Source: an uncultured Candidatus Saccharibacteria bacterium
GTDB lineage: Bacteria > Patescibacteriota > UBA1384 > XYA2-FULL-43-10 > 1-14-0-10-43-13
DNA length: 33,942 nt
Reading direction: 5' to 3'
NCBI GenBank assembly: GCA_964363695.1
Contig: CAYIJI010000001.1
Coordinates: 1-33,942 of the forward strand
Below are positions 3,640 through 14,833 of the stretch, piece by piece. Made by a program: the position numbers and the translations under genes. The notes beneath the pieces are model-generated. The model was not told the DNA's origin and made no database searches. It was given only the letters and a program-made list of their open reading frames with translations. Each line of letters begins with the position of its first letter. The first letter of the stretch is position 1.

Positions 3640-4437
3640 ATGAAAAACTATTTTGACGGTAAGAAGATTAGAGATGAAATAATCGAAGATCTGAAAAATA
3701 AAATAGAAAAAATGGAGCGGAAGCCTGGCTTAGCTGTTTTTTTGATTGGAAATGATGTTATTTGCGAGAGGTATGTTGCTCTTAAAAAGCGAATTGCTGA
3801 GAAAATCGGCATTTTTGTAAGAGTCTACAAATTCGATGAAAATAGCGAGCAGCAAGAAATTATTTCTAAAATAAAAGAGCTAAACACTGATAATACAATC
3901 GATGGAATAATGGTCCAAATTCCTATCCCAAAAAACTTTGATAAGTATGAAATTATTAATGCTATTAGTCCGGAGAAAGACATTGATGGATTGCGCTTTT
4001 GTGCGGGATTTCACTCTCATTTTACTCCGCCAGTCGTTCTTGCAATATTAAAAGCAATTGAGTTAGCGAATAAGGATATAGAAGAATGCAAAGTTTTGGT
4101 GGTTGGCAGAGGTTTACTAGTGGGCTGGCCGGTGGCTCAGTGTATGGAAGAGGCGGTTAAGGGTCTTGTAATTGCTGATGGGAGCACAAAGAACTTGGAA
4201 AATCTTACGGAAGATGCCGATGTGATTATCTCTGCCACCGGTAAATCGAATTTGATTAAACCAGATATGATTAAAGAAGGCGCCGTTCTAATTGATGCCG
4301 GCACTTCGGAGGTTGGGGGAGAGCTTTTGGGCGACATCGATCCAGAGTCTTATAAGAGAGCCTCGTTCTACACGCCGGTTCCGGGTGGAATTGGCCCTGT
4401 TACAGTGGCAATGTTATTGAAGAATTTAGTTGGATAG
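3640..4437 (+). CDS. folD: Bifunctional methylenetetrahydrofolate dehydrogenase/cyclohydrolase
   Basis: DGIMVQIPIP, KDIDGL, VVGRGLLVGWP, ATGKSNLIK and VPGGIGPVTVAMLLKN are FolD hallmarks. Confidence 0.85.
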   Translation: MKNYFDGKKIRDEIIEDLKNKIEKMERKPGLAVFLIGNDVICERYVALKKRIAEKIGIFVRVYKFDENSEQQEIISKIKELNTDNTIDGIMVQIPIPKNFDKYEIINAISPEKDIDGLRFCAGFHSHFTPPVVLAILKAIELANKDIEECKVLVVGRGLLVGWPVAQCMEEAVKGLVIADGSTKNLENLTEDADVIISATGKSNLIKPDMIKEGAVLIDAGTSEVGGELLGDIDPESYKRASFYTPVPGGIGPVTVAMLLKNLVG

Positions 4438-4680: not shown

Positions 4681-5604
4681 ATGGCTAAGACCATCGGAAC
4701 TGCAGGCTTCACAGAAATAACGCATGAAAAGTGCGGCAAGGGGATCGCTAGGGTAATAGACGGCGTCCCGCATGTTGAGTGCACACGGAGAGGTTGCCGA
4801 GAATGGGTGCCTCTTCATGGTTTGGTCCAGATGAGTGATATTCAGCAAGTGCTGGCTCTCATAGGATCAGGTCAGGTTTCGTTAGCCGATATTATGGCGC
4901 TAGCAGACCCGTTCACCGCTTATCGGCAGATCGATGGGCTATTCGTGGTTGGCGCGGCGGAGCTGGATCAGCTTTTCCGAACGGAATCTAATCCGCTTGG
5001 ACTCGATTCTGGCTGGGTTCCACAAATACCTGTTCCGAGTGATTTGGATCAGTGGATCCGTTCTGAGCAGTGGCGCACAGACAAGAATTGGCAGACTCGT
5101 GCTGCTCTTGTGTTGGTGCCACCAAAGATCGGGGATTTCCCATCCAGCCTGGTCAGCCAAAGCTATCTGCTTGGAGTGAGCCATGATGGAATCCCCCCTG
5201 GAATTATCCGCTCAGATGTTCTCTGGAGCAACTACTTCGTCCAGCCTAAATACAACTGGGCGATGGAACCGGCAACAGCAGAGTGGCAATGGATGCTCGT
5301 ATACGAGCATCCAGTCTTCATCACGCAGAAGGATTGGGACAAGCAACAGGGAATCGCGCGACAATATAGGATGCCGATTTCCACTGTTGCGCAAGACGCA
5401 TGGGGACTTAATATGGTTCATGCCGTTTACGGTGTTAGCCTCCGTTTGTCAACGTGGTCACGGACAAGTTCCCTCTGCGATGGCAACCCGCTCTACGTCC
5501 GCTCGATCGACGGCAGCGTCAGCGTCTATCAGGGCTGGGATCCTCGGTTTGCGGGCGGCGTTGTGGCGGCTTCCGTCCAGGGAGTTCCAGCACTTGATTG
5601 TTGA
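4681..5604 (+). CDS. DGR variable (target) protein; the C-terminal 38 codons are the variable repeat
   Basis: 307 aa, with AAGGAG 9 nt before the ATG. The 3' end (5472-5585) is the VR. I recognised no signal peptide or TM segment. The N-terminus has a Cys/His-rich stretch (EKCGKG...HVECTRRGC). A C-type-lectin-like fold of the VR domain is expected from DGR biology but cannot be verified by eye. Confidence 0.85.
   Translation: MAKTIGTAGFTEITHEKCGKGIARVIDGVPHVECTRRGCREWVPLHGLVQMSDIQQVLALIGSGQVSLADIMALADPFTAYRQIDGLFVVGAAELDQLFRTESNPLGLDSGWVPQIPVPSDLDQWIRSEQWRTDKNWQTRAALVLVPPKIGDFPSSLVSQSYLLGVSHDGIPPGIIRSDVLWSNYFVQPKYNWAMEPATAEWQWMLVYEHPVFITQKDWDKQQGIARQYRMPISTVAQDAWGLNMVHAVYGVSLRLSTWSRTSSLCDGNPLYVRSIDGSVSVYQGWDPRFAGGVVAASVQGVPALDC
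5472..5585 (+). repeat. DGR variable repeat (VR)
   Basis: Aligns without gaps to 5932-6045 at a constant 460-nt offset. There are 19 mismatches, all where the TR has A. The 3' 24 nt (tgtggcggcttccgtccagggagt) are identical to the TR and GC-rich, as for an IMH (initiation of mutagenic homing). Confidence 0.9.
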
Positions 5605-5655: not shown

Positions 5656-5931
5656 ATTTTCATGCCCTAGATTTGTCTTTTTTGTAATTTTTGTTATTAT
5701 ATATTCGAAAGTAGGTAGAGATTTTCGATTTACGAATCGGGAGCGCCGAAATCTCTGAACTTCAATTAGTCAGAATCTGTTAATCCAAGGATTAATGGAG
5801 AGAATGAACGAATGTTTGGAAACTCCGTGCCTGTTTTCTAGAGTAGGTGTTCGGGTTAACCGAGCTACTATCAAATAAAATACAGCTCCAAGAGAAATCA
5901 AAGAGCAGTGCACATAGGTGGAAAATAGGCT

Positions 5932-6045
5932 AATCTACGATGGCAACCCGCTCAACGTCAACTCGAACGACGACAGCGTCAACGTCAATCAGAACTGGAA
6001 TCCTCAGAATGCGGACGACGATGTGGCGGCTTCCGTCCAGGGAGT
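5932..6045 (+). repeat. DGR template repeat (TR), non-coding
   Basis: Adenine-rich counterpart of the VR. In the VR frame it reads AAC/AAT/GAC codons at the variable positions. It lies 30 nt upstream of the RT start. Confidence 0.9.
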
Positions 6046-6075
6046 CTCTAAACTATACAAAAGCATCCTAAAAAG

Positions 6076-7203
6076 ATGCTTTTGTTGCTTTTAACCAACC
6101 GCCTAACATTCTGCCGATTTCTTGCAGTTTTTCTTCCAGAAAAAGATATTTTTTCACAGATTATTAGTATTGAAAACTTATACGAAAGTTGGGCTGAATT
6201 TAAATACGGCAAGCGCAAGAAAGGCGATGTCCAGGCTTTTGAAAGAAAACTGGAAGATAATTTGTTCTCTTTGCGATACGATTTAAAGAATAGAACGTAC
6301 CGACATTCGGATTATACCTCATTTTACATCACTGATCCAAAATTACGCCATATTCACAAAGCGGAAGTACGAGATCGGATTGCGCATCATGCGATTTATA
6401 GAATTTTATACACAATATTTGATAAAGGTTTTATTTACGATTCGTATTCTTGCCGATTAGAAAAAGGCACGCACAAAGCTGTTGCTCGACTTAAAAATTT
6501 TACTCAAAAAGTTAGCAAAAACAATACAATTCCCTGTTATGCTTTGAAATGCGACGTTAAGAAATTTTTTGATTCGGTTGACCATGAAATTTTGCTTTCG
6601 TTAATCAAGAGAAAAATTGCTGATCCAGATACATTATTGTTGCTTGAAGAGATTATCGAAAGTTTTAGTAAACCAACTAAAACCGCTGGTGTTCAGCTAG
6701 ATCTTTTTGATTTGCATCGCGCAAATCGAGAGAGAGAGAGAGAGAGAGAGCTGCAGCCTTCGGCCGCTAGCGGTAAGGGAATCCCAATTGGCAATTTAAC
6801 CAGTCAACTTTTTGCCAATATATACATGAACGAACTTGATCAATTTGTTAAACACAAGCTGAAGATTAAATACTATCTTCGCTATTGCGATGATTTTATT
6901 ATCCTGGGTAATCAAGAGGAAGAGCTGCATAAAATCGTGGAAAGAATTGGCGAGTTTCTTTTCAATAATTTAAAGCTTTCTTTACATCCTAATAAGGTCT
7001 CAATACGAAAATTGAATCAAGGGGTAGATTTTTTAGGCTACATCGTATTGCCGTATTATACAGTTTTAAGGACAAAAACAAGGAAAAGAATGTTGAAGAA
7101 AGTCAATAAAAAGAATTTGTTTTCATATTTGGGGCTTTTGAAGCATTGTGATGGGTATGAGCAGTCCAGATTGATTCTTGATAAAGTAAAGCAGTGCGAA
7201 TGA
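6076..7203 (+). CDS. DGR reverse transcriptase
   Basis: SYSCRLEKGTHKA, LKCDVKKFFDSVDHEIL, GIPIGNLTSQLFANIYMNELDQF (the DGR-specific I/LGxxxSQ motif), YLRYCDDFIILG (YxDD) and LSLHPNKV...GVDFLGY. Contains an in-frame (GA)11 tract. The start codon is uncertain because the ATG at 6076 lies inside a hairpin. Confidence 0.9.
   Translation: MLLLLLTNRLTFCRFLAVFLPEKDIFSQIISIENLYESWAEFKYGKRKKGDVQAFERKLEDNLFSLRYDLKNRTYRHSDYTSFYITDPKLRHIHKAEVRDRIAHHAIYRILYTIFDKGFIYDSYSCRLEKGTHKAVARLKNFTQKVSKNNTIPCYALKCDVKKFFDSVDHEILLSLIKRKIADPDTLLLLEEIIESFSKPTKTAGVQLDLFDLHRANRERERERELQPSAASGKGIPIGNLTSQLFANIYMNELDQFVKHKLKIKYYLRYCDDFIILGNQEEELHKIVERIGEFLFNNLKLSLHPNKVSIRKLNQGVDFLGYIVLPYYTVLRTKTRKRMLKKVNKKNLFSYLGLLKHCDGYEQSRLILDKVKQCE
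6728..6750 (+). repeat. (GA)11G dinucleotide microsatellite inside the RT gene
   Basis: gagagagagagagagagagagag, translated RERERERE, lies just upstream of the IPIGNLTSQ motif. Confidence 0.95.
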
Positions 7204-7244: not shown

Positions 7245-8507
7245 ATGAAAAATAAAATAAAGAAAATAGTTGATATTCCACCTCACCCAGCCTCTCCTTG
7301 GAAAGGAGAGGAGAAGATTCGAGTAGCTATTGGAATGTCTGGCGGAGTTGATTCTTCTGTTGCGGCAAAAATTCTGAAAGACCAAGGATATGAAGTGATT
7401 GGTTTTATGATGAAGCTTTGGCCTGGGTCTGACCCGTCTGTCTGCGACAGCCGAGGCAAGGACAACGCTTGCTGTGATATTGACGGACTTCAGGATGCAA
7501 AGCGGATTGCGGCAATTTTAGATATTCCATTTTATGTCGTCGACGTAAGGGAGAAATTTAAGAAGGAAGTTGCTGATTATTTTATCGAAGAATATAAGAG
7601 CCTGCGTACTCCAAATCCATGCGTCCGCTGTAATGAGCGAATTAAATTTGGTTGGCTCTTGGACTTTGCCAAACAAACCGGATGCGACTATTTAGCGACT
7701 GGACACTACGCTCGCATAGCGAGCGATTTATCATTTATCAATTCTCATTTCTCATTGAATGAAAAATTATCAAATGACCAAATGAATGAAAAATGGAAAA
7801 TGGTCAATGGAAAATTTCATCTTTTGCGTGGCAAGGATGATAAAAAAGATCAATCATATTTTCTCTATCGCTTGAACCAAGACCAGTTGAAGCATATTAT
7901 TTTTCCAGTAGGCGAATTTATTAAAGAGGAAACGCGGGCTTTGGCCAAAAAGTGGAATTTGCCAGTCCATGAGAAAAAGGAAAGCCAGGAAATATGCTTT
8001 ATACAGGAAAAGGATTACCGTGATTTTTTGAAGAAAAACATTTCTGAAGAGTATTTTAAAGAAGGGGACATTGTTGACATGGACGATAATGTAATCGGAA
8101 AACATCAAGGGCTTATCAATTATACAATCGGGCAGCGTAAAGGCATCGAACAGATATCAGATAACAGATATCTGATAACAGTAGATAAAAGGCCAATGTA
8201 TGTTGTTGGGTTTAATGTAGAAAAGAACCAGTTGATTGTTGGTGAAGATAAGGATATCTATAAAGATGAAATGATTATTGGTGATTTATCATGGGTTCAG
8301 AGTACAGATAACAGAATACAGGTGACAGATAACTTATCTGTGAAAATCAGATACAGGCATCCGGCAGTTAATTGTAGAATTAAGAATACAGATAACAGTA
8401 GACAGATAACAGTAGAGTTTTTTGAGCCGCAGAGAGCAATTACGCCAGGCCAGAGCGCGGTATTCTATTTGGAGGATGAAGTGCTTGGTGGAGGCATAAT
8501 ACAATAA
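7245..8507 (+). CDS. mnmA: tRNA-specific 2-thiouridylase MnmA with several in-frame repeat insertions
   Basis: VAIGMSGGVDSSVAA (PP-loop), NPCVRCN, GHYAR, KDQSYFLY and the C-terminal PGQSAVFY. Confidence 0.9.
   Translation: MKNKIKKIVDIPPHPASPWKGEEKIRVAIGMSGGVDSSVAAKILKDQGYEVIGFMMKLWPGSDPSVCDSRGKDNACCDIDGLQDAKRIAAILDIPFYVVDVREKFKKEVADYFIEEYKSLRTPNPCVRCNERIKFGWLLDFAKQTGCDYLATGHYARIASDLSFINSHFSLNEKLSNDQMNEKWKMVNGKFHLLRGKDDKKDQSYFLYRLNQDQLKHIIFPVGEFIKEETRALAKKWNLPVHEKKESQEICFIQEKDYRDFLKKNISEEYFKEGDIVDMDDNVIGKHQGLINYTIGQRKGIEQISDNRYLITVDKRPMYVVGFNVEKNQLIVGEDKDIYKDEMIIGDLSWVQSTDNRIQVTDNLSVKIRYRHPAVNCRIKNTDNSRQITVEFFEPQRAITPGQSAVFYLEDEVLGGGIIQ
7727..7820 (+). repeat. In-frame AT-rich palindromic repeat in mnmA (TCATTT/AAATGA, CCATTTT/AAAATGG word family)
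   Basis: Encodes LSFINSHFSLNEKLSNDQMNEKWKMVNGKF between the conserved GHYAR and KDQSYF blocks. The same word family fills the intergenic regions 25455-25620 and 25860-25965. Confidence 0.5.
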
Positions 8508-8529
8508 TATAAATTTGAGGAAATATTAA

Positions 8530-10839
8530 ATGGATCTAGAGACTAAAATTCAATACCTATCTGGAGTGGGGCCGAAAATGGCAGCAAAGCTTAATCGGCT
8601 TGGGGTTGAAACGGTTTCGGATCTTATTTTTTATTACCCAAGAACATACAAAGACTTTAGTAATATAACTAGAATCTCCGATATTCGATATTCAAACAAG
8701 GAAGCGATCTCAATTAAGGGGACCATACTTGGCATTGCCAACAAAACAACCAGTCGAAGGCGTTTTACTGTTACTGAAGCCGTAGTAGAAGACGGTACAG
8801 GAAGCCTGAAGGTAATTTGGTTTAACCAGCCTTTTTTAGCTAAAATGCTTACTCCTGGCCGAGAGGTTATTTTAAACGGGAAAGCGCAATACAACTTTTT
8901 TGCGAAAGAAGTGGTAATGGAGTCGCCTGATCGTGCTCTTCGCGAAAGCATCGTTTCGATTTATGGCGAAACAGCAGGGATAACAAGCACCTATATTCGA
9001 AAATTAGTATCAAATATTAAGGATCAAATATCGAGTATTGGAGAATGGCTACCGCAGGAATTGCTACGTCATTCCCGATTTAGTCGGGAATCTACTAATA
9101 GTGATACTATCCTGGATCCCCGCCTTCGCGGGGATGACATAGGAGAGGGCAGGGATGACAATTGTTTGAATTTGCTTTCGATCCAAGAAGCATTAAATAG
9201 CATTCATCAGCCGAAAAACACAGAAATGTTGGCGCAGGCGAAGCGAAGAATTGCTTTTGATGAACTTTTTATGATTGCTTTACGAGCGAATTTAAGCAAG
9301 GAAGAGATTAAAAAAGAGAACGCTCCTATTATTGACATTAATGATAAAAATCTTGCTATCGCTAGATTTTTATCATATTTACCATTCAAGTTAACTGATG
9401 ACCAGAAAAAGTCGGCTTGGCAAATTGTTAAAGATATTGGGCAAAGCAAGCCGATGAATCGTCTTTTGAATGGTGATGTCGGGAGCGGCAAAACTGTTGT
9501 GGCTGCAGTTGCCGCTTTTGTGGCAGTTAAAGCAGGCTTTCGAGTGGCTTTTATGGTACCGACTGAAATCCTTGCACAGCAACATTTTAAAACGTTTTGT
9601 GAATTGTTCGATGTGCAAAATATAAGCATTGGACTTTATACTGCAAATTGCAAAGATAATTTTAAATTTAAAATTCCTGCCTTGCCGGCAGGCAGGTCTA
9701 ATTTAAAATCAATTTCTAATTCTAAAATTTCAAATAAAAGACAAAAAGAAGCTGAAGTGTTGAGTTCTGACATAGTTATTGGTACGCAAGCACTAATTCA
9801 AAAGGATGTTGAGTTAGAGAATATAGGATTGGTGATAGTCGATGAACAACATCGGTTTGGAGTTGTTCAGCGTCAAGCGCTGAAGCAGTTGGGTGTAGGG
9901 AGCGGGGAACAGGGAGAAAAAACTTCAAACTCTCATTCGAGTCTGAGCCTGAGGGCTCTTCCCTCAGAGTCGAAGACCAAACTCCAAATTCCTCACTTCT
10001 TGAGTATGACCGCAACGCCGATTCCCAGAACATTACATTTGGCTTTATTCGGCGACTTGGATATTTCTGTAATTTCACAAAAGCCGGCCGATAGAAAAGA
10101 AATCAAAACGCGGGTAGTTGAGGAAATTAATCGCTATAAGGCATATGAATTTATTCGTAAACAAATTCAATTAGGCAGACAAGCATTTGTTATTTGTCCC
10201 TTGATAGAACAGGTTACAGATAACAGGATACAGATAGCAGAATTATTTGCCGAAGAAAAAAAGACGGTGATTAGCGAATATGAGAAGCTACAAAAAATAT
10301 TTCCTGAGTTCAGAATAGGGATGCTGCATGGACGGCTTAAGGCAAAAGAAAAAGACGCAGTTATGGAGGAATTTTCCGAGAACAAGATTAACATCCTAGT
10401 TAGTACATCGGTGGTCGAGGTTGGGATTGATGTGCCTAACGCGACCGTAATGGCCATCGAAGATGCCGAACGTTTTGGCCTGGCTCAGATTCATCAGTTT
10501 CGAGGACGAGTAGGCAGGGCCGAACATCAGTCGTTTTGCTTTCTGTTTTCCTCTACAATGAATCCTCGCGCAATTAAGCGTTTAAAGGATCTCGAAGTAA
10601 CTTCAGATGGGTTTAAGCTGGCAGAAATTGATCTGGAAACTAGGGGGCCAGGAGCAGTGTTTGGCACTGAGCAATCCGGCCTTTTGGATTTAAAGATGGC
10701 AAACTTTAGTGATAGAATGTTAATCGAACAGGCAAGCTCAGCTGCAAAAGGGATTGTTGAAAACGATCCTGAACTTAAAAGCCACCCTTTTCTTAAAGAA
10801 AAAATCGCTGACTATTTACAGAATAAACACTTGGAGTAG
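8530..10839 (+). CDS. recG: ATP-dependent DNA helicase RecG with at least four in-frame repeat insertions
   Basis: The N-terminal YLSGVGPKMAAKLNRLG...YYPRTY, Walker A GDVGSGKT, DEQHRFGV, TATPIPRT and the QFRGRVGR motif. Confidence 0.9.
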   Translation: MDLETKIQYLSGVGPKMAAKLNRLGVETVSDLIFYYPRTYKDFSNITRISDIRYSNKEAISIKGTILGIANKTTSRRRFTVTEAVVEDGTGSLKVIWFNQPFLAKMLTPGREVILNGKAQYNFFAKEVVMESPDRALRESIVSIYGETAGITSTYIRKLVSNIKDQISSIGEWLPQELLRHSRFSRESTNSDTILDPRLRGDDIGEGRDDNCLNLLSIQEALNSIHQPKNTEMLAQAKRRIAFDELFMIALRANLSKEEIKKENAPIIDINDKNLAIARFLSYLPFKLTDDQKKSAWQIVKDIGQSKPMNRLLNGDVGSGKTVVAAVAAFVAVKAGFRVAFMVPTEILAQQHFKTFCELFDVQNISIGLYTANCKDNFKFKIPALPAGRSNLKSISNSKISNKRQKEAEVLSSDIVIGTQALIQKDVELENIGLVIVDEQHRFGVVQRQALKQLGVGSGEQGEKTSNSHSSLSLRALPSESKTKLQIPHFLSMTATPIPRTLHLALFGDLDISVISQKPADRKEIKTRVVEEINRYKAYEFIRKQIQLGRQAFVICPLIEQVTDNRIQIAELFAEEKKTVISEYEKLQKIFPEFRIGMLHGRLKAKEKDAVMEEFSENKINILVSTSVVEVGIDVPNATVMAIEDAERFGLAQIHQFRGRVGRAEHQSFCFLFSSTMNPRAIKRLKDLEVTSDGFKLAEIDLETRGPGAVFGTEQSGLLDLKMANFSDRMLIEQASSAAKGIVENDPELKSHPFLKEKIADYLQNKHLE
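9068..9160 (+). repeat. In-frame GTCATTCCCG...GGGGATGACA palindromic element in recG
   Basis: gtcattcccgatttagtcgggaat plus ggatccccgccttcgcggggatgaca, the same family as 21386-21410, 21987-22011 and 24251-24275. Translated HSRFSRESTNSDTILDPRLRGDDIGEGRDD. Confidence 0.7.
9657..9735 (+). repeat. In-frame copy in recG of the AATTTTAAATTTAAAATT-type AT-rich repeat with a central palindrome
   Basis: aattttaaatttaaaattcctgccttgccggcaggcaggtctaatttaaaatcaatttctaattctaaaatttc. The same word family occurs in the intergenic regions 1416-1525, 21860-21910 and 24690-24960. Translated NFKFKIPALPAGRSNLKSISNSKIS. Confidence 0.6.
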
Positions 10840-10924: not shown

Positions 10925-11482
10925 ATGACAAGTAAAAATTTAAAATCTGAAGAATTGATTAAAAAACTAGAATCTTTTGTTGAGAAATATCGTTTTTTTG
11001 TAGGAAGCGGGTTAATAGTATTGATTTTAGCAGGGGCTGGGATTTTGTTATGGAGGGAGAATTTTGCGAAGCAAAATCCAGAATCAAGAATCGCGAATCT
11101 TGAATCAAGAATCAGCCGGCTGGAAGCCGACAATAATCAAGAAACAAGAAGCAATAACCAAACAAATTCCAATATTCAAGAAGATAATATCCAAACTGAT
11201 CAAGGGCATGTGGCGGGAGCAAGCAGTCAGAATACAGTCGAACAGATAACAGATAACAGTAAACAGACGACAACCAGTCAGCCAGTGAACAGCAAGATCA
11301 ATATCAATACCGCTTCTGAGTCCGAGCTCGATTCACTTCCTGGGATTGGTCCGACTTATGCTAAGAGAATAATTGAATATCGAAATGCCAACGGCGGGTT
11401 TAAGAGTATTGAAGAAATAAAGAACGTAAAGGGAATCGGCGACAAAACTTTTCTAAAATTCAAGGATAGAATAACGATCTAA
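10925..11482 (+). CDS. comEA: ComEA-type DNA-binding competence protein (N-terminal TM, C-terminal helix-hairpin-helix)
   Basis: TM segment FFVGSGLIVLILAGAGILLW. C-terminus ININTASESELDSLPGIGPTYAKRIIEYRNANGGFKSIEEIKNVKGIGDKTF. Confidence 0.85.
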   Translation: MTSKNLKSEELIKKLESFVEKYRFFVGSGLIVLILAGAGILLWRENFAKQNPESRIANLESRISRLEADNNQETRSNNQTNSNIQEDNIQTDQGHVAGASSQNTVEQITDNSKQTTTSQPVNSKININTASESELDSLPGIGPTYAKRIIEYRNANGGFKSIEEIKNVKGIGDKTFLKFKDRITI

Positions 11483-14429: not shown

Positions 14430-14833
14430 TAAGCATTTAAGCAAGCAAGCCCTTTTAAGTTAGTATCTTTGTGATTTTTTCCAGCTGTTTAATAATTTGC
14501 CGACTTCTTCCATTTTAGCTGAAACCTCGTTAAACAATTCTTCTTCGATGTATTTTAAGTCTTTCGATAGTAAAATTTGATATTTAAGTTCTTCAAGCGA
14601 ACCTTCTGCAATTATGTAAAATCTTTTGCTGTCATTTAATGATTTTCGAGCAAATCCTTCAGCAATATTGGATGGAACGGAAACAGCGCATCTTCTAAGT
14701 TGGCTGACTAAATTAAATGTTTCCGATTTTGGTAGATCATTTGTAATTTTGTAAATTACTAAAGCAATTTCATGGGCTTTCTGCCAAGCAATTATTTCTT
14801 TGAATGATTTAATACTCATAGCTTAAATGCTTA
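14430..14833. mobile_element. Inverted-repeat-flanked cassette carrying the four-helix-bundle gene
   Basis: A perfect 13-bp inverted repeat: taagcatttaagc (14430-14442) and gcttaaatgctta (14821-14833). The left copy ends 17 nt outside the gene and the right copy begins 1 nt past its start codon. Each copy lies within a longer TAAGC-word array. Confidence 0.6.
14460..14819 (-). CDS. Four-helix-bundle protein (23S rRNA intervening-sequence protein / Avd family)
   Basis: IAWQKAHEIALVIYKITNDLPKSETFNLVSQLRRCAVSVPSNIAEGFARKS...FYIIAEGSLEELKYQILLSKDL matches the TIGR02436/PF05635 pattern. That family includes the DGR accessory protein Avd. Confidence 0.8.
   Translation of the reverse strand: MSIKSFKEIIAWQKAHEIALVIYKITNDLPKSETFNLVSQLRRCAVSVPSNIAEGFARKSLNDSKRFYIIAEGSLEELKYQILLSKDLKYIEEELFNEVSAKMEEVGKLLNSWKKSQRY

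Follow-up and report, generated by a model that had tools for sequence, protein, structure and literature searches.

Diversity-generating retroelements (DGRs) are, to our knowledge, the only known prokaryotic systems of targeted protein hypermutation. They are very common in ultra-small bacteria of the Candidate Phyla Radiation (CPR). Contingency loci based on simple sequence repeats (SSRs) are known, among others, from the CT repeats in oipA, sabA and hopZ of Helicobacter pylori, the poly-G tracts of Campylobacter jejuni and the tetranucleotide repeats of Haemophilus influenzae. Phase variation by such intragenic loci has been reviewed (PMC11868660, PMC3315296). As for DGRs, they were divided by Roux et al. 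2021 into 'active' and 'inactive' ones according to the diversity of the variable region (VR), and no genetic cause was offered (PMC8144416). The present analysis deals with a GA microsatellite inside the DGR reverse transcriptase (RT) gene of an uncultured Candidatus Saccharibacteria bacterium. The gene is located in a stretch of 33,942 nt (GenBank assembly GCA_964363695.1, contig CAYIJI010000001.1, positions 1 to 33,942), which is called the window below. An earlier reading of these letters, made without database searches (hereafter, the original prediction), had proposed that slippage in the microsatellite could switch hypermutation on and off. Comparison with related sequences indicates that this is probably so, namely that the GA tract is a hypermutable repeat in a length-tolerant loop of RT and serves as a stochastic, heritable and reversible ON/OFF switch.

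The window RT was aligned with its best homologues, which are 53–67% identical and come mainly from Patescibacteria/CPR metagenomes (alignment A2). The parts of the gene on which the argument depends are as follows:

6076..7203, + strand: open reading frame (ORF) of the DGR reverse transcriptase, 375 aa, supported by a match to Pfam RVT_1 (E 1e-22) and by alignment A2; the conserved RT starts near 6160.
6667..6777, + strand: coding region of a variable surface loop, predicted to be disordered (aa 198–234), between EIIESF and GIPIGNLTSQ, delimited by homologue lengths and by the predicted local distance difference test (pLDDT).
6728..6750, + strand: (GA)11+G microsatellite, which is translated as RERERERE and leaves the window RT in frame (ON); (GA)10 in contig L001 truncates RT, and (GA)11 is also present in contig L247.
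6778..6807, + strand: RT motif GIPIGNLTSQ (DGR-type motif 4), with the near-invariant A2 columns G235, P237, G239, N240, T242, S243 and Q244.
6883..6894, + strand: catalytic YCDD (YxDD), with the conserved A2 columns Y270, D272 and D273; it is lost if the tract is out of frame.

The tract (GAGAGAGAGAGAGAGAGAGAGAG) is 23 nt long, and the Tandem Repeats Finder (TRF) describes it as a repeat with a period of 2, 11.5 copies and 100% matches. It lies in frame within the RT ORF and is translated as N217-RERERERE-L226. Thus, the ORF reading and TRF bear out the original prediction of a perfect GA tract read in frame inside RT. The GIPIGNLTSQ and YCDD motifs are both located downstream of the tract, at distances of 27 and 132 nt, respectively. 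In the 920,153-bp genome (66 contigs, 39% G+C), no other dinucleotide repeat exceeds 6 units, the length of the runner-up, and the combined pattern of tract and motif was matched in 0 of 100 shuffles of the window. By these two results, chance does not account for the tract.

The segment between EIIxSF and GxPIGNLTSQ varies from 2 to 60 residues among 113 full-length homologues and comprises only 2–8 residues in about half of them. The AlphaFold2 model built on the homologue alignment is otherwise of good confidence (mean pLDDT 82.8, predicted template modelling score (pTM) 0.79), and residues 203–231 had a pLDDT below 50, which places the tract in a predicted disordered surface loop. The variable length and the low pLDDT agree with the earlier description of this segment as a low-complexity insertion, and most related RTs lack it, as judged from the 113 homologues.

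Repeats of the (RE)≥2 type were found in the loop of 23 of the 113 full-length homologues, as could be expected if the repeat were selected as a peptide, e.g., as a charged flexible linker. However, in six homologues that were chosen at the protein level (P0012, P0029, P0007, P0037, P0047 and P0001), every R and E of the repeat was encoded by AGA and GAG, and neither CGN nor GAA codons occurred. Varied codons had been expected in the case of selection on the peptide; the codons are uniform, and all three frames are used, depending on the lineage, for the DNA following the tract (CAGCCTTCGGCTG and its variants), which encodes QPSA in the window, SLRL in both L246 and L215, and AAFGC in L003, L100 and L200. 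This lack of synonymous variation in spite of the 39% G+C genome, a repeat number that ranges from ~2 to ~8 RE, the absence of such a peptide from most homologues, the prevalence of out-of-frame alleles among tract-bearing loci and the predicted disorder of the loop make a role of the peptide hardly credible. Peptide-level selection on RE was rejected on codon usage.

The proposed switch would operate as follows. Slipped-strand mispairing during replication would add or remove GA units. Each single-unit step would break or re-establish the common frame of the N-terminal half and the catalytic half of RT, the latter containing GIPIGNLTSQ and YCDD, and another step would restore the previous state. 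Since (GA)n encodes (RE)n whichever frame is used and never gives a stop, the repeat would be harmless at any length in the disordered loop, and only the downstream frame would change; in this sense, (GA)n can be considered a natural frame-neutral repeat in a loop that tolerates any length. Slippage is probably frequent here, because no MutS/MutL gene was found: a search of the window genome (89.8% complete) for MutS_V and MutL domains gave no result. MutS/MutL are likewise not known from H. pylori and C. jejuni. According to this scheme, the (GA)11 allele of the window would be ON and the (GA)10 allele from the same aquifer well would be OFF. We infer that high-rate replication slippage is the source of the length changes, that switching is reversible within populations and that the arrangement has been selected as bet-hedging on mutagenesis.

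Two tract lengths were found in the window's organism. The closest match of the window RT, protein P0002 (230 aa), ends with ...NRERERER-AAAFGR-stop, the stop being located 7 codons past the tract. The corresponding contig L001 (ENA ERZ1292621) was obtained from the Hainich groundwater well H52 (0.2 µm fraction, replicate 3, coverage 3). It is identical to window positions 5876–6799 over 922 nt save for one GA unit fewer, i.e., it carries (GA)10 and a truncated RT. This allele corresponds to the predicted event, in which the change of one unit shifts the frame ahead of YxDD. A second contig of the organism, L247 (well H52, 0.1 µm fraction, 4,802 nt, coverage 3), carries (GA)11 and is 99.96% identical to the window over 4.8 kb, with two substitutions located at 4116 and at position 6025 of the template repeat (TR; G/C). 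The 90% protein cluster includes two members only, which are the two RT forms. A search for further alleles via the flanking genes led to two contigs for MnmA and to none for FolD.

Pairs of sister contigs with a one-unit difference were also revealed among the relatives. The flanks (320–500 nt) are 100% identical for L117 (20 nt) compared with L083/L131 (18 nt) and for L187 (15 nt) compared with L201 (17 nt); for L144 (12 nt) and L180 (14 nt), they are 99.2% identical. The frame offsets of the sister contigs match the unit-difference arithmetic exactly, which validates the frame calls. The contigs L117 (in frame) and L083 (out of frame) are identical over 2 kb, including the N-terminal half of RT, the avd region and TR, except for the tract. 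Their VRs, by contrast with these regions, differ at ~19 positions, nearly all of which are TR-adenine sites (in L083, VR is located at 8463–8587 and TR at 7949–8073). To judge by the compared contigs, this shows very recent activity of a tract-bearing DGR whose lineage includes both phases. The contigs L083 and L131, both out of frame and derived from different samples, have the same VR. The pattern agrees in direction with VRs being frozen when RT is out of frame, as a single case (n = 1 lineage, consensus sequences only). Past position 9400 of L083, the target gene is also sharply divergent, and this could be a second variable region or a result of recombination.

To evaluate the frame states more widely, metagenomes were scanned for the pattern AGAGAGAGAG, followed by 0–30 nt and then by GxPxGNxTSQ, with a GA tract of ≥10 nt. 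At least 120 RT loci with such a tract just upstream of GxPxGNxTSQ were found. The frame was called by placing the N-terminal and C-terminal halves of RT separately by tblastn. Each half gave one high-scoring segment pair over almost the whole query and contained no internal stop, with the sole exception of L183. The matches listed formed 101 independent clusters, namely 26 in frame, 38 with an offset of +1 and 37 with an offset of +2 (chi-square test against a uniform distribution, p = 0.27). Among 401 species-representative genomes of the phylum (GTDB), the RT clade was present in 103 and the tract in 12; the 11 tract loci besides the window genome were in frame in 4 cases, +1 in 3 and +2 in 4. 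When the metagenome matches listed and the GTDB loci were combined, 115 independent loci with a tract were obtained (31 in frame, 42 +1 and 42 +2). The pattern of tract plus motif gave 0 matches in viral contigs.

The tract length in the 115 loci ranged from 10 to 51 nt with a median of 19 nt. Together with the (GA)10 and (GA)11 alleles of the window's organism and the three more pairs of sister contigs, this demonstrates that the length is not uniform, and uniformity was the outcome that the original prediction had named as unfavorable for slippage. No difference in tract length was found between the phases over the 115 loci (medians 20 and 19 nt). Tracts of ≤12 nt were in frame in 6 cases and out of frame in 2, while the longer ones were in frame in 25 and out of frame in 82 (Fisher p = 0.005; the 12-nt threshold was set post hoc). 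Out-of-frame tracts were also present on very long contigs of high-quality genomes, such as G016 C1 (>724 kb) and G069 C1. All 77 of the 77 related RT loci without a tract were in frame, this control being biased, as the loci were ranked by tblastn.

Sequencing or assembly artefacts could account for length differences and frame calls, and some features are consistent with this: the differing contigs of the window's organism have ~3x coverage, 3 of the 120 metagenome contigs listed begin inside the tract, and an N-bridged duplication is present at the tract of L177. In the latter contig, two copies of the tract plus motif are located 120 nt apart and are joined by N, which is probably a scaffolding artefact. 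However, tracts of 10–35 nt are shorter than commonly used k-mers and reads, and stutter is unable to put 73% of consensus sequences out of frame. The out-of-frame tracts on long contigs of high-quality genomes (G016 C1, G069 C1), the sister-contig offsets that obey unit arithmetic and the 77/77 in-frame loci without a tract also contradict an artefact, which we regard as extremely unlikely. Breakage of contigs at the tract was considered as a sign of heterogeneity and was rejected: 12 contigs have the tract less than 100 nt from the end versus 8.5 expected (p = 0.15, not significant), and only the 3 contigs starting inside the tract are unusual.

Repeats of other types were found at the same loop. 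Three split RTs of the phylum sample that escaped the GA pattern have intact halves and are out of frame: L249 (G361:C3) contains G10 with an offset of +1, L254 (G078:C1) contains (CA)16 with an offset of +2, and L250 (G390:C3) contains (GA)19, followed by a long hairpin (GCTGTCGG...CCGACAGC), with an offset of +1. The occurrence of several repeat types at one loop suggests that the site itself is mutable or tolerates mutability, and it argues against a one-off accident.

Some further peculiarities of the loop can be mentioned. The last bases of the contig L257 (G387:C21) are a poly-G run located at the RT loop. In L156 (Hainich H43, 93-kb contig), a degenerate purine tract of ~75 nt occupies the site, with (GA)n mixed with GAAA units. 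The RT loops of L013 and L055 carry other inserts, e.g., peptides of the PSPREGE- and DPRLRGDD-type. The peptides DPRLRGDD, RENGNP and PSPREGE resemble translated small palindromic repeat elements, and peptides of this sort are present as inserts both in the window RecG (~9100–9190, ORF 8530..10839) and in CPR RT loops. This suggests that the RT loop receives insertions of short repeats in general. Some relatives (L251, L252) have truncated RTs without the C-terminal half. It was also considered that a split RT might be produced as two polypeptides; this was rejected, as the out-of-frame loci have a stop in the downstream frame just before the tract and no start codon between this stop and GxPIGN.

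The dN/dS ratio (nonsynonymous to synonymous substitutions) was estimated by the Nei–Gojobori method for both halves of RT. In pairs where both members are out of frame, it was 0.08–0.13 (L084/L085, L161/L189, L083/L121, L098/L179 and L096/L167), and in-frame pairs gave equal values, e.g., 0.10 for L117/L174. As measured by this ratio, the RT gene is under purifying selection throughout, out-of-frame lineages included. In a FastTree phylogeny of 152 RTs, the presence of the tract underwent at least 16 changes, and two deep clades were solely tract-bearing. The frame state required 19 changes for 20 in-frame rows, which is equal to the result for shuffled labels. Such a random distribution of the frame on the tree indicates that the phase flips much faster than the protein diverges.

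These data bear on the assumption that the tract is a tolerated hotspot without a regulatory role, in which out-of-frame alleles are mildly deleterious or neutral accidents in dispensable or decaying DGRs. This is in line with a loop that accepts 2–60 residues and inserts of other repeat elements (L013, L055), with an in-frame share not above one third, with the loss of full avd from the window DGR (see below) and with RTs that have no C-terminal half (L251, L252). However, although 73% of the consensus alleles are out of frame, both halves remain stop-free and dN/dS is near 0.1, unlike in decaying genes. The tract is pure and long (median 19 nt) across RTs that are 35–70% identical, while unselected microsatellites decay by point mutation. 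In addition, three repeat types occur at one loop, and VR has been diversified recently in a lineage with both phases. Taken together, a mere tolerated hotspot seems very unlikely, and the switch remains the preferred explanation.

The frame could also be restored at the RNA level. In this case, RNA polymerase would slip by GA units, or the ribosome would shift by +/-2 nt (by AGA/GAG re-pairing, perhaps with the help of a hairpin), and the DNA frame would drift neutrally. Every allele would then give some full-length RT, and the tract would not be a DNA on/off switch but would serve for dimming or recoding. A possible hairpin follows the tract in the window:

6751..6773, + strand: weak palindrome (CTGCAG / CCGCTAGCGG), a degraded copy of the GC-rich hairpin that follows the tract in relatives.

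The fold energy of this palindrome is -6.9 kcal/mol with a z-score of 0.09 (not significant), versus -15.7 kcal/mol and a z-score of -3.4 for its homologue in L003. In relatives, the 36 nt after the tract have a mean energy of -6.7 kcal/mol versus -2.0 and -4.7 kcal/mol in control segments of the same genes, a comparison confounded by the palindromic PIGN coding sequence. Right after the tract, L003 (1675–1705), L215, L246, L148, L178, L093, L163 and L187 contain a GC-rich palindrome, the loop of which is TTC or TGC. Its stems vary (CAGCC/GGCTG, CGGCC/GGCCG, GGCGC/GCGCC and CCTGCCTG/CAGGCAGG), and it is translated in three frames across lineages. In L003, the stem reaches into the tract, where AGAG pairs with CTCT. 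The hairpin was rejected as a required component, being not significant in the window and not universal in relatives.

The recurrence of the GC-rich hairpin with differing stems, together with the z-score of L003, is compatible with decoding at the RNA level, as is the equally low dN/dS in out-of-frame lineages. Two-base deletions by eukaryotic RNA polymerase II at GAGAG are documented (PMC3091519), and transcriptional slippage is used in bacterial gene expression (PMC1088944). However, known bacterial transcriptional slippage takes place on A/T homopolymers and not on dinucleotides (PMC1088944). DNA length differences are seen directly between otherwise identical contigs, so slippage of DNA is certain. 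Programmed frameshift sites hold one frame relation, and here the 0/+1/+2 states number 31/42/42. The hairpin is not universal, the PIGN palindrome adds to the fold signal, and general mutability explains poly-G and (CA)n at the site better than a specific signal for recoding does. We therefore consider RNA-level decoding unlikely. A related possibility, which we judge to be decidedly unlikely, is that the GA tract would be a new recoding signal: whole units would slip, possibly with the assistance of the hairpin, and the DNA length would set the dose of hypermutation through a trickle of full-length RT.

The element to which the RT belongs includes the following parts:

4681..5604, + strand: DGR target gene (307 aa) with VR at its C-terminus (5474–5585), recognized from the ORF list and the VR/TR repeat.
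5934..6045, + strand: template repeat (TR), recognized as a repeat with VR.
6065..6160, − strand: avd stump consisting of the C-terminal 22–30 codons only, found by tblastn with six bAvd proteins of relatives (E down to 1e-8).

TR and VR differ by 16 mismatches, and 16 of 16 are located at TR adenines. The RT motifs, the RVT_1 match and these adenine-specific mismatches establish that the window element is a genuine DGR. In relatives, a full bAvd gene is located head-to-head with RT. The avd stump of the window directly abuts the conserved RT start, and the first ~28 annotated RT codons (MLLLLLTNRLTFCRFLAVFLPEK...) are antisense to it; residues 1–18 of RT had a pLDDT below 50 in the AlphaFold model. 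The deletion in avd probably took out the divergent avd/RT promoter region too. An intact Avd gene was not found in the genome by tblastn; besides the stump, the only weak match was a four-helix-bundle gene at 14472–14819 (Avd-like match, 25% identity, E 2e-5).

A number of observations weigh against the tract being a switch. Only the final 22–30 residues of the six bAvd proteins matched the window, and with no more than this stump of Avd left, the DGR of the window may be inactive or crippled whatever the phase of RT. VR is identical in the window and in L247, the two assemblies that cover it. Stutter during the polymerase chain reaction (PCR) or sequencing may stand behind the pair of (GA)10 and (GA)11, as both contigs have only ~3x coverage. 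Across the relatives, the in-frame share of 27% gives no sign of selection for ON, and alone it is no proof of an adaptive switch over a tolerated hotspot. The frames are indistinguishable from uniform, as would be expected under RNA-level decoding if the DNA frame were irrelevant. Finally, the absence of MutS/MutL is drawn from an incomplete genome. Considering these points, the switch is best regarded as a trait of the RT family that is still carried by the window copy and is currently ON there. The window itself carries a smaller message: its RT is read in frame, the same well also contains an allele that is out of frame, and Avd has been lost.

Repeats of another kind were noted in coding regions of the window. 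Heptamers and 14-mers, both of the ACAGATA/AACAGAT type, are located at 1784–2139, 8149–8416, 10208–10241 and 11241–11267. These repeats encode TDNRIQ-like peptides in MnmA, RecG and ComEA.

If the proposed mechanism is true, it would represent evolvability of the second order: a localized source of hypermutation would, at random, enable or disable another such source, and only a subpopulation would bear the cost of scrambling the target protein. It would account for many of the DGR RTs that look split or 'pseudogenised' in metagenome-assembled genomes, and there would be reason to keep these genes in consideration instead of dismissing them as broken. A phase-variable RT would also be one possible genetic cause of inactive DGRs.

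The original prediction knew of no DGR controlled in this way, and the literature searches likewise turned up none. In full-text searches on DGRs combined with phase variation, frameshift or SSR, no paper describing a repeat-gated DGR RT was found. The DGR surveys (PMC5758913, PMC8144416) either refer to frameshifts and slippage only for TR/VR indels or do not mention them, and the 2025 review of phase variation (PMC11868660) contains 0 mentions of 'retroelement'.

A comparison with described DGRs, namely that of the Bordetella phage BPP-1 and those of CPR bacteria (Wu et al. 2018, PMC5758913; Roux et al. 2021, PMC8144416), indicated that the window element has the same RT with GxPIGNLTSQ and YxDD, the same adenine-specific TR/VR differences and the same position of VR at the C-terminus of the target gene; bAvd is located next to RT in relatives. 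Unlike in these DGRs, for which a microsatellite or frame switch in RT is not described, the RT gene contains the GA tract, and avd is a stump.

The tract also resembles the sites of programmed frameshifting and transcriptional slippage (PMC5009743, PMC1088944) and the GAGAG sites of 'molecular misreading' (PMC3091519) in that a slippery repeat stands between two frames and is sometimes followed by a hairpin. It differs from them in the lack of a fixed frame relation, in the dinucleotide unit, in the polymorphic length of the DNA and in a hairpin that is not universal. Phasevarions based on Type III/Type I mod methyltransferases (PMC5909438, PMC7383803) are similar in another respect: SSRs lie in the gene of an enzyme that acts on DNA, switching is random and the effects are exerted elsewhere in the genome. 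However, their outcome is genome-wide methylation and gene regulation, while the outcome here would be the targeted diversification of one protein.

The SSR contingency loci show the closest correspondence in several features. In both cases, a perfect short-unit repeat is located inside a gene, one unit shifts the frame and truncates the product, the tract length varies between otherwise identical genomes, all three phases occur and the host is apparently without MutS/MutL. At the same time, the switched gene here encodes a cytoplasmic mutagenic enzyme and not a surface or restriction-modification product, the repeat is located mid-gene in a predicted disordered loop and not near the 5' end, and it is carried by groundwater Patescibacteria with a free-living or episymbiotic way of life and not by host-adapted pathogens. 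The site is, moreover, conserved across RTs that are 35–70% identical, with GA, poly-G and CA repeats converging on it. Thus, in kind, the arrangement is SSR phase variation on a new target, the reverse transcriptase of a DGR.

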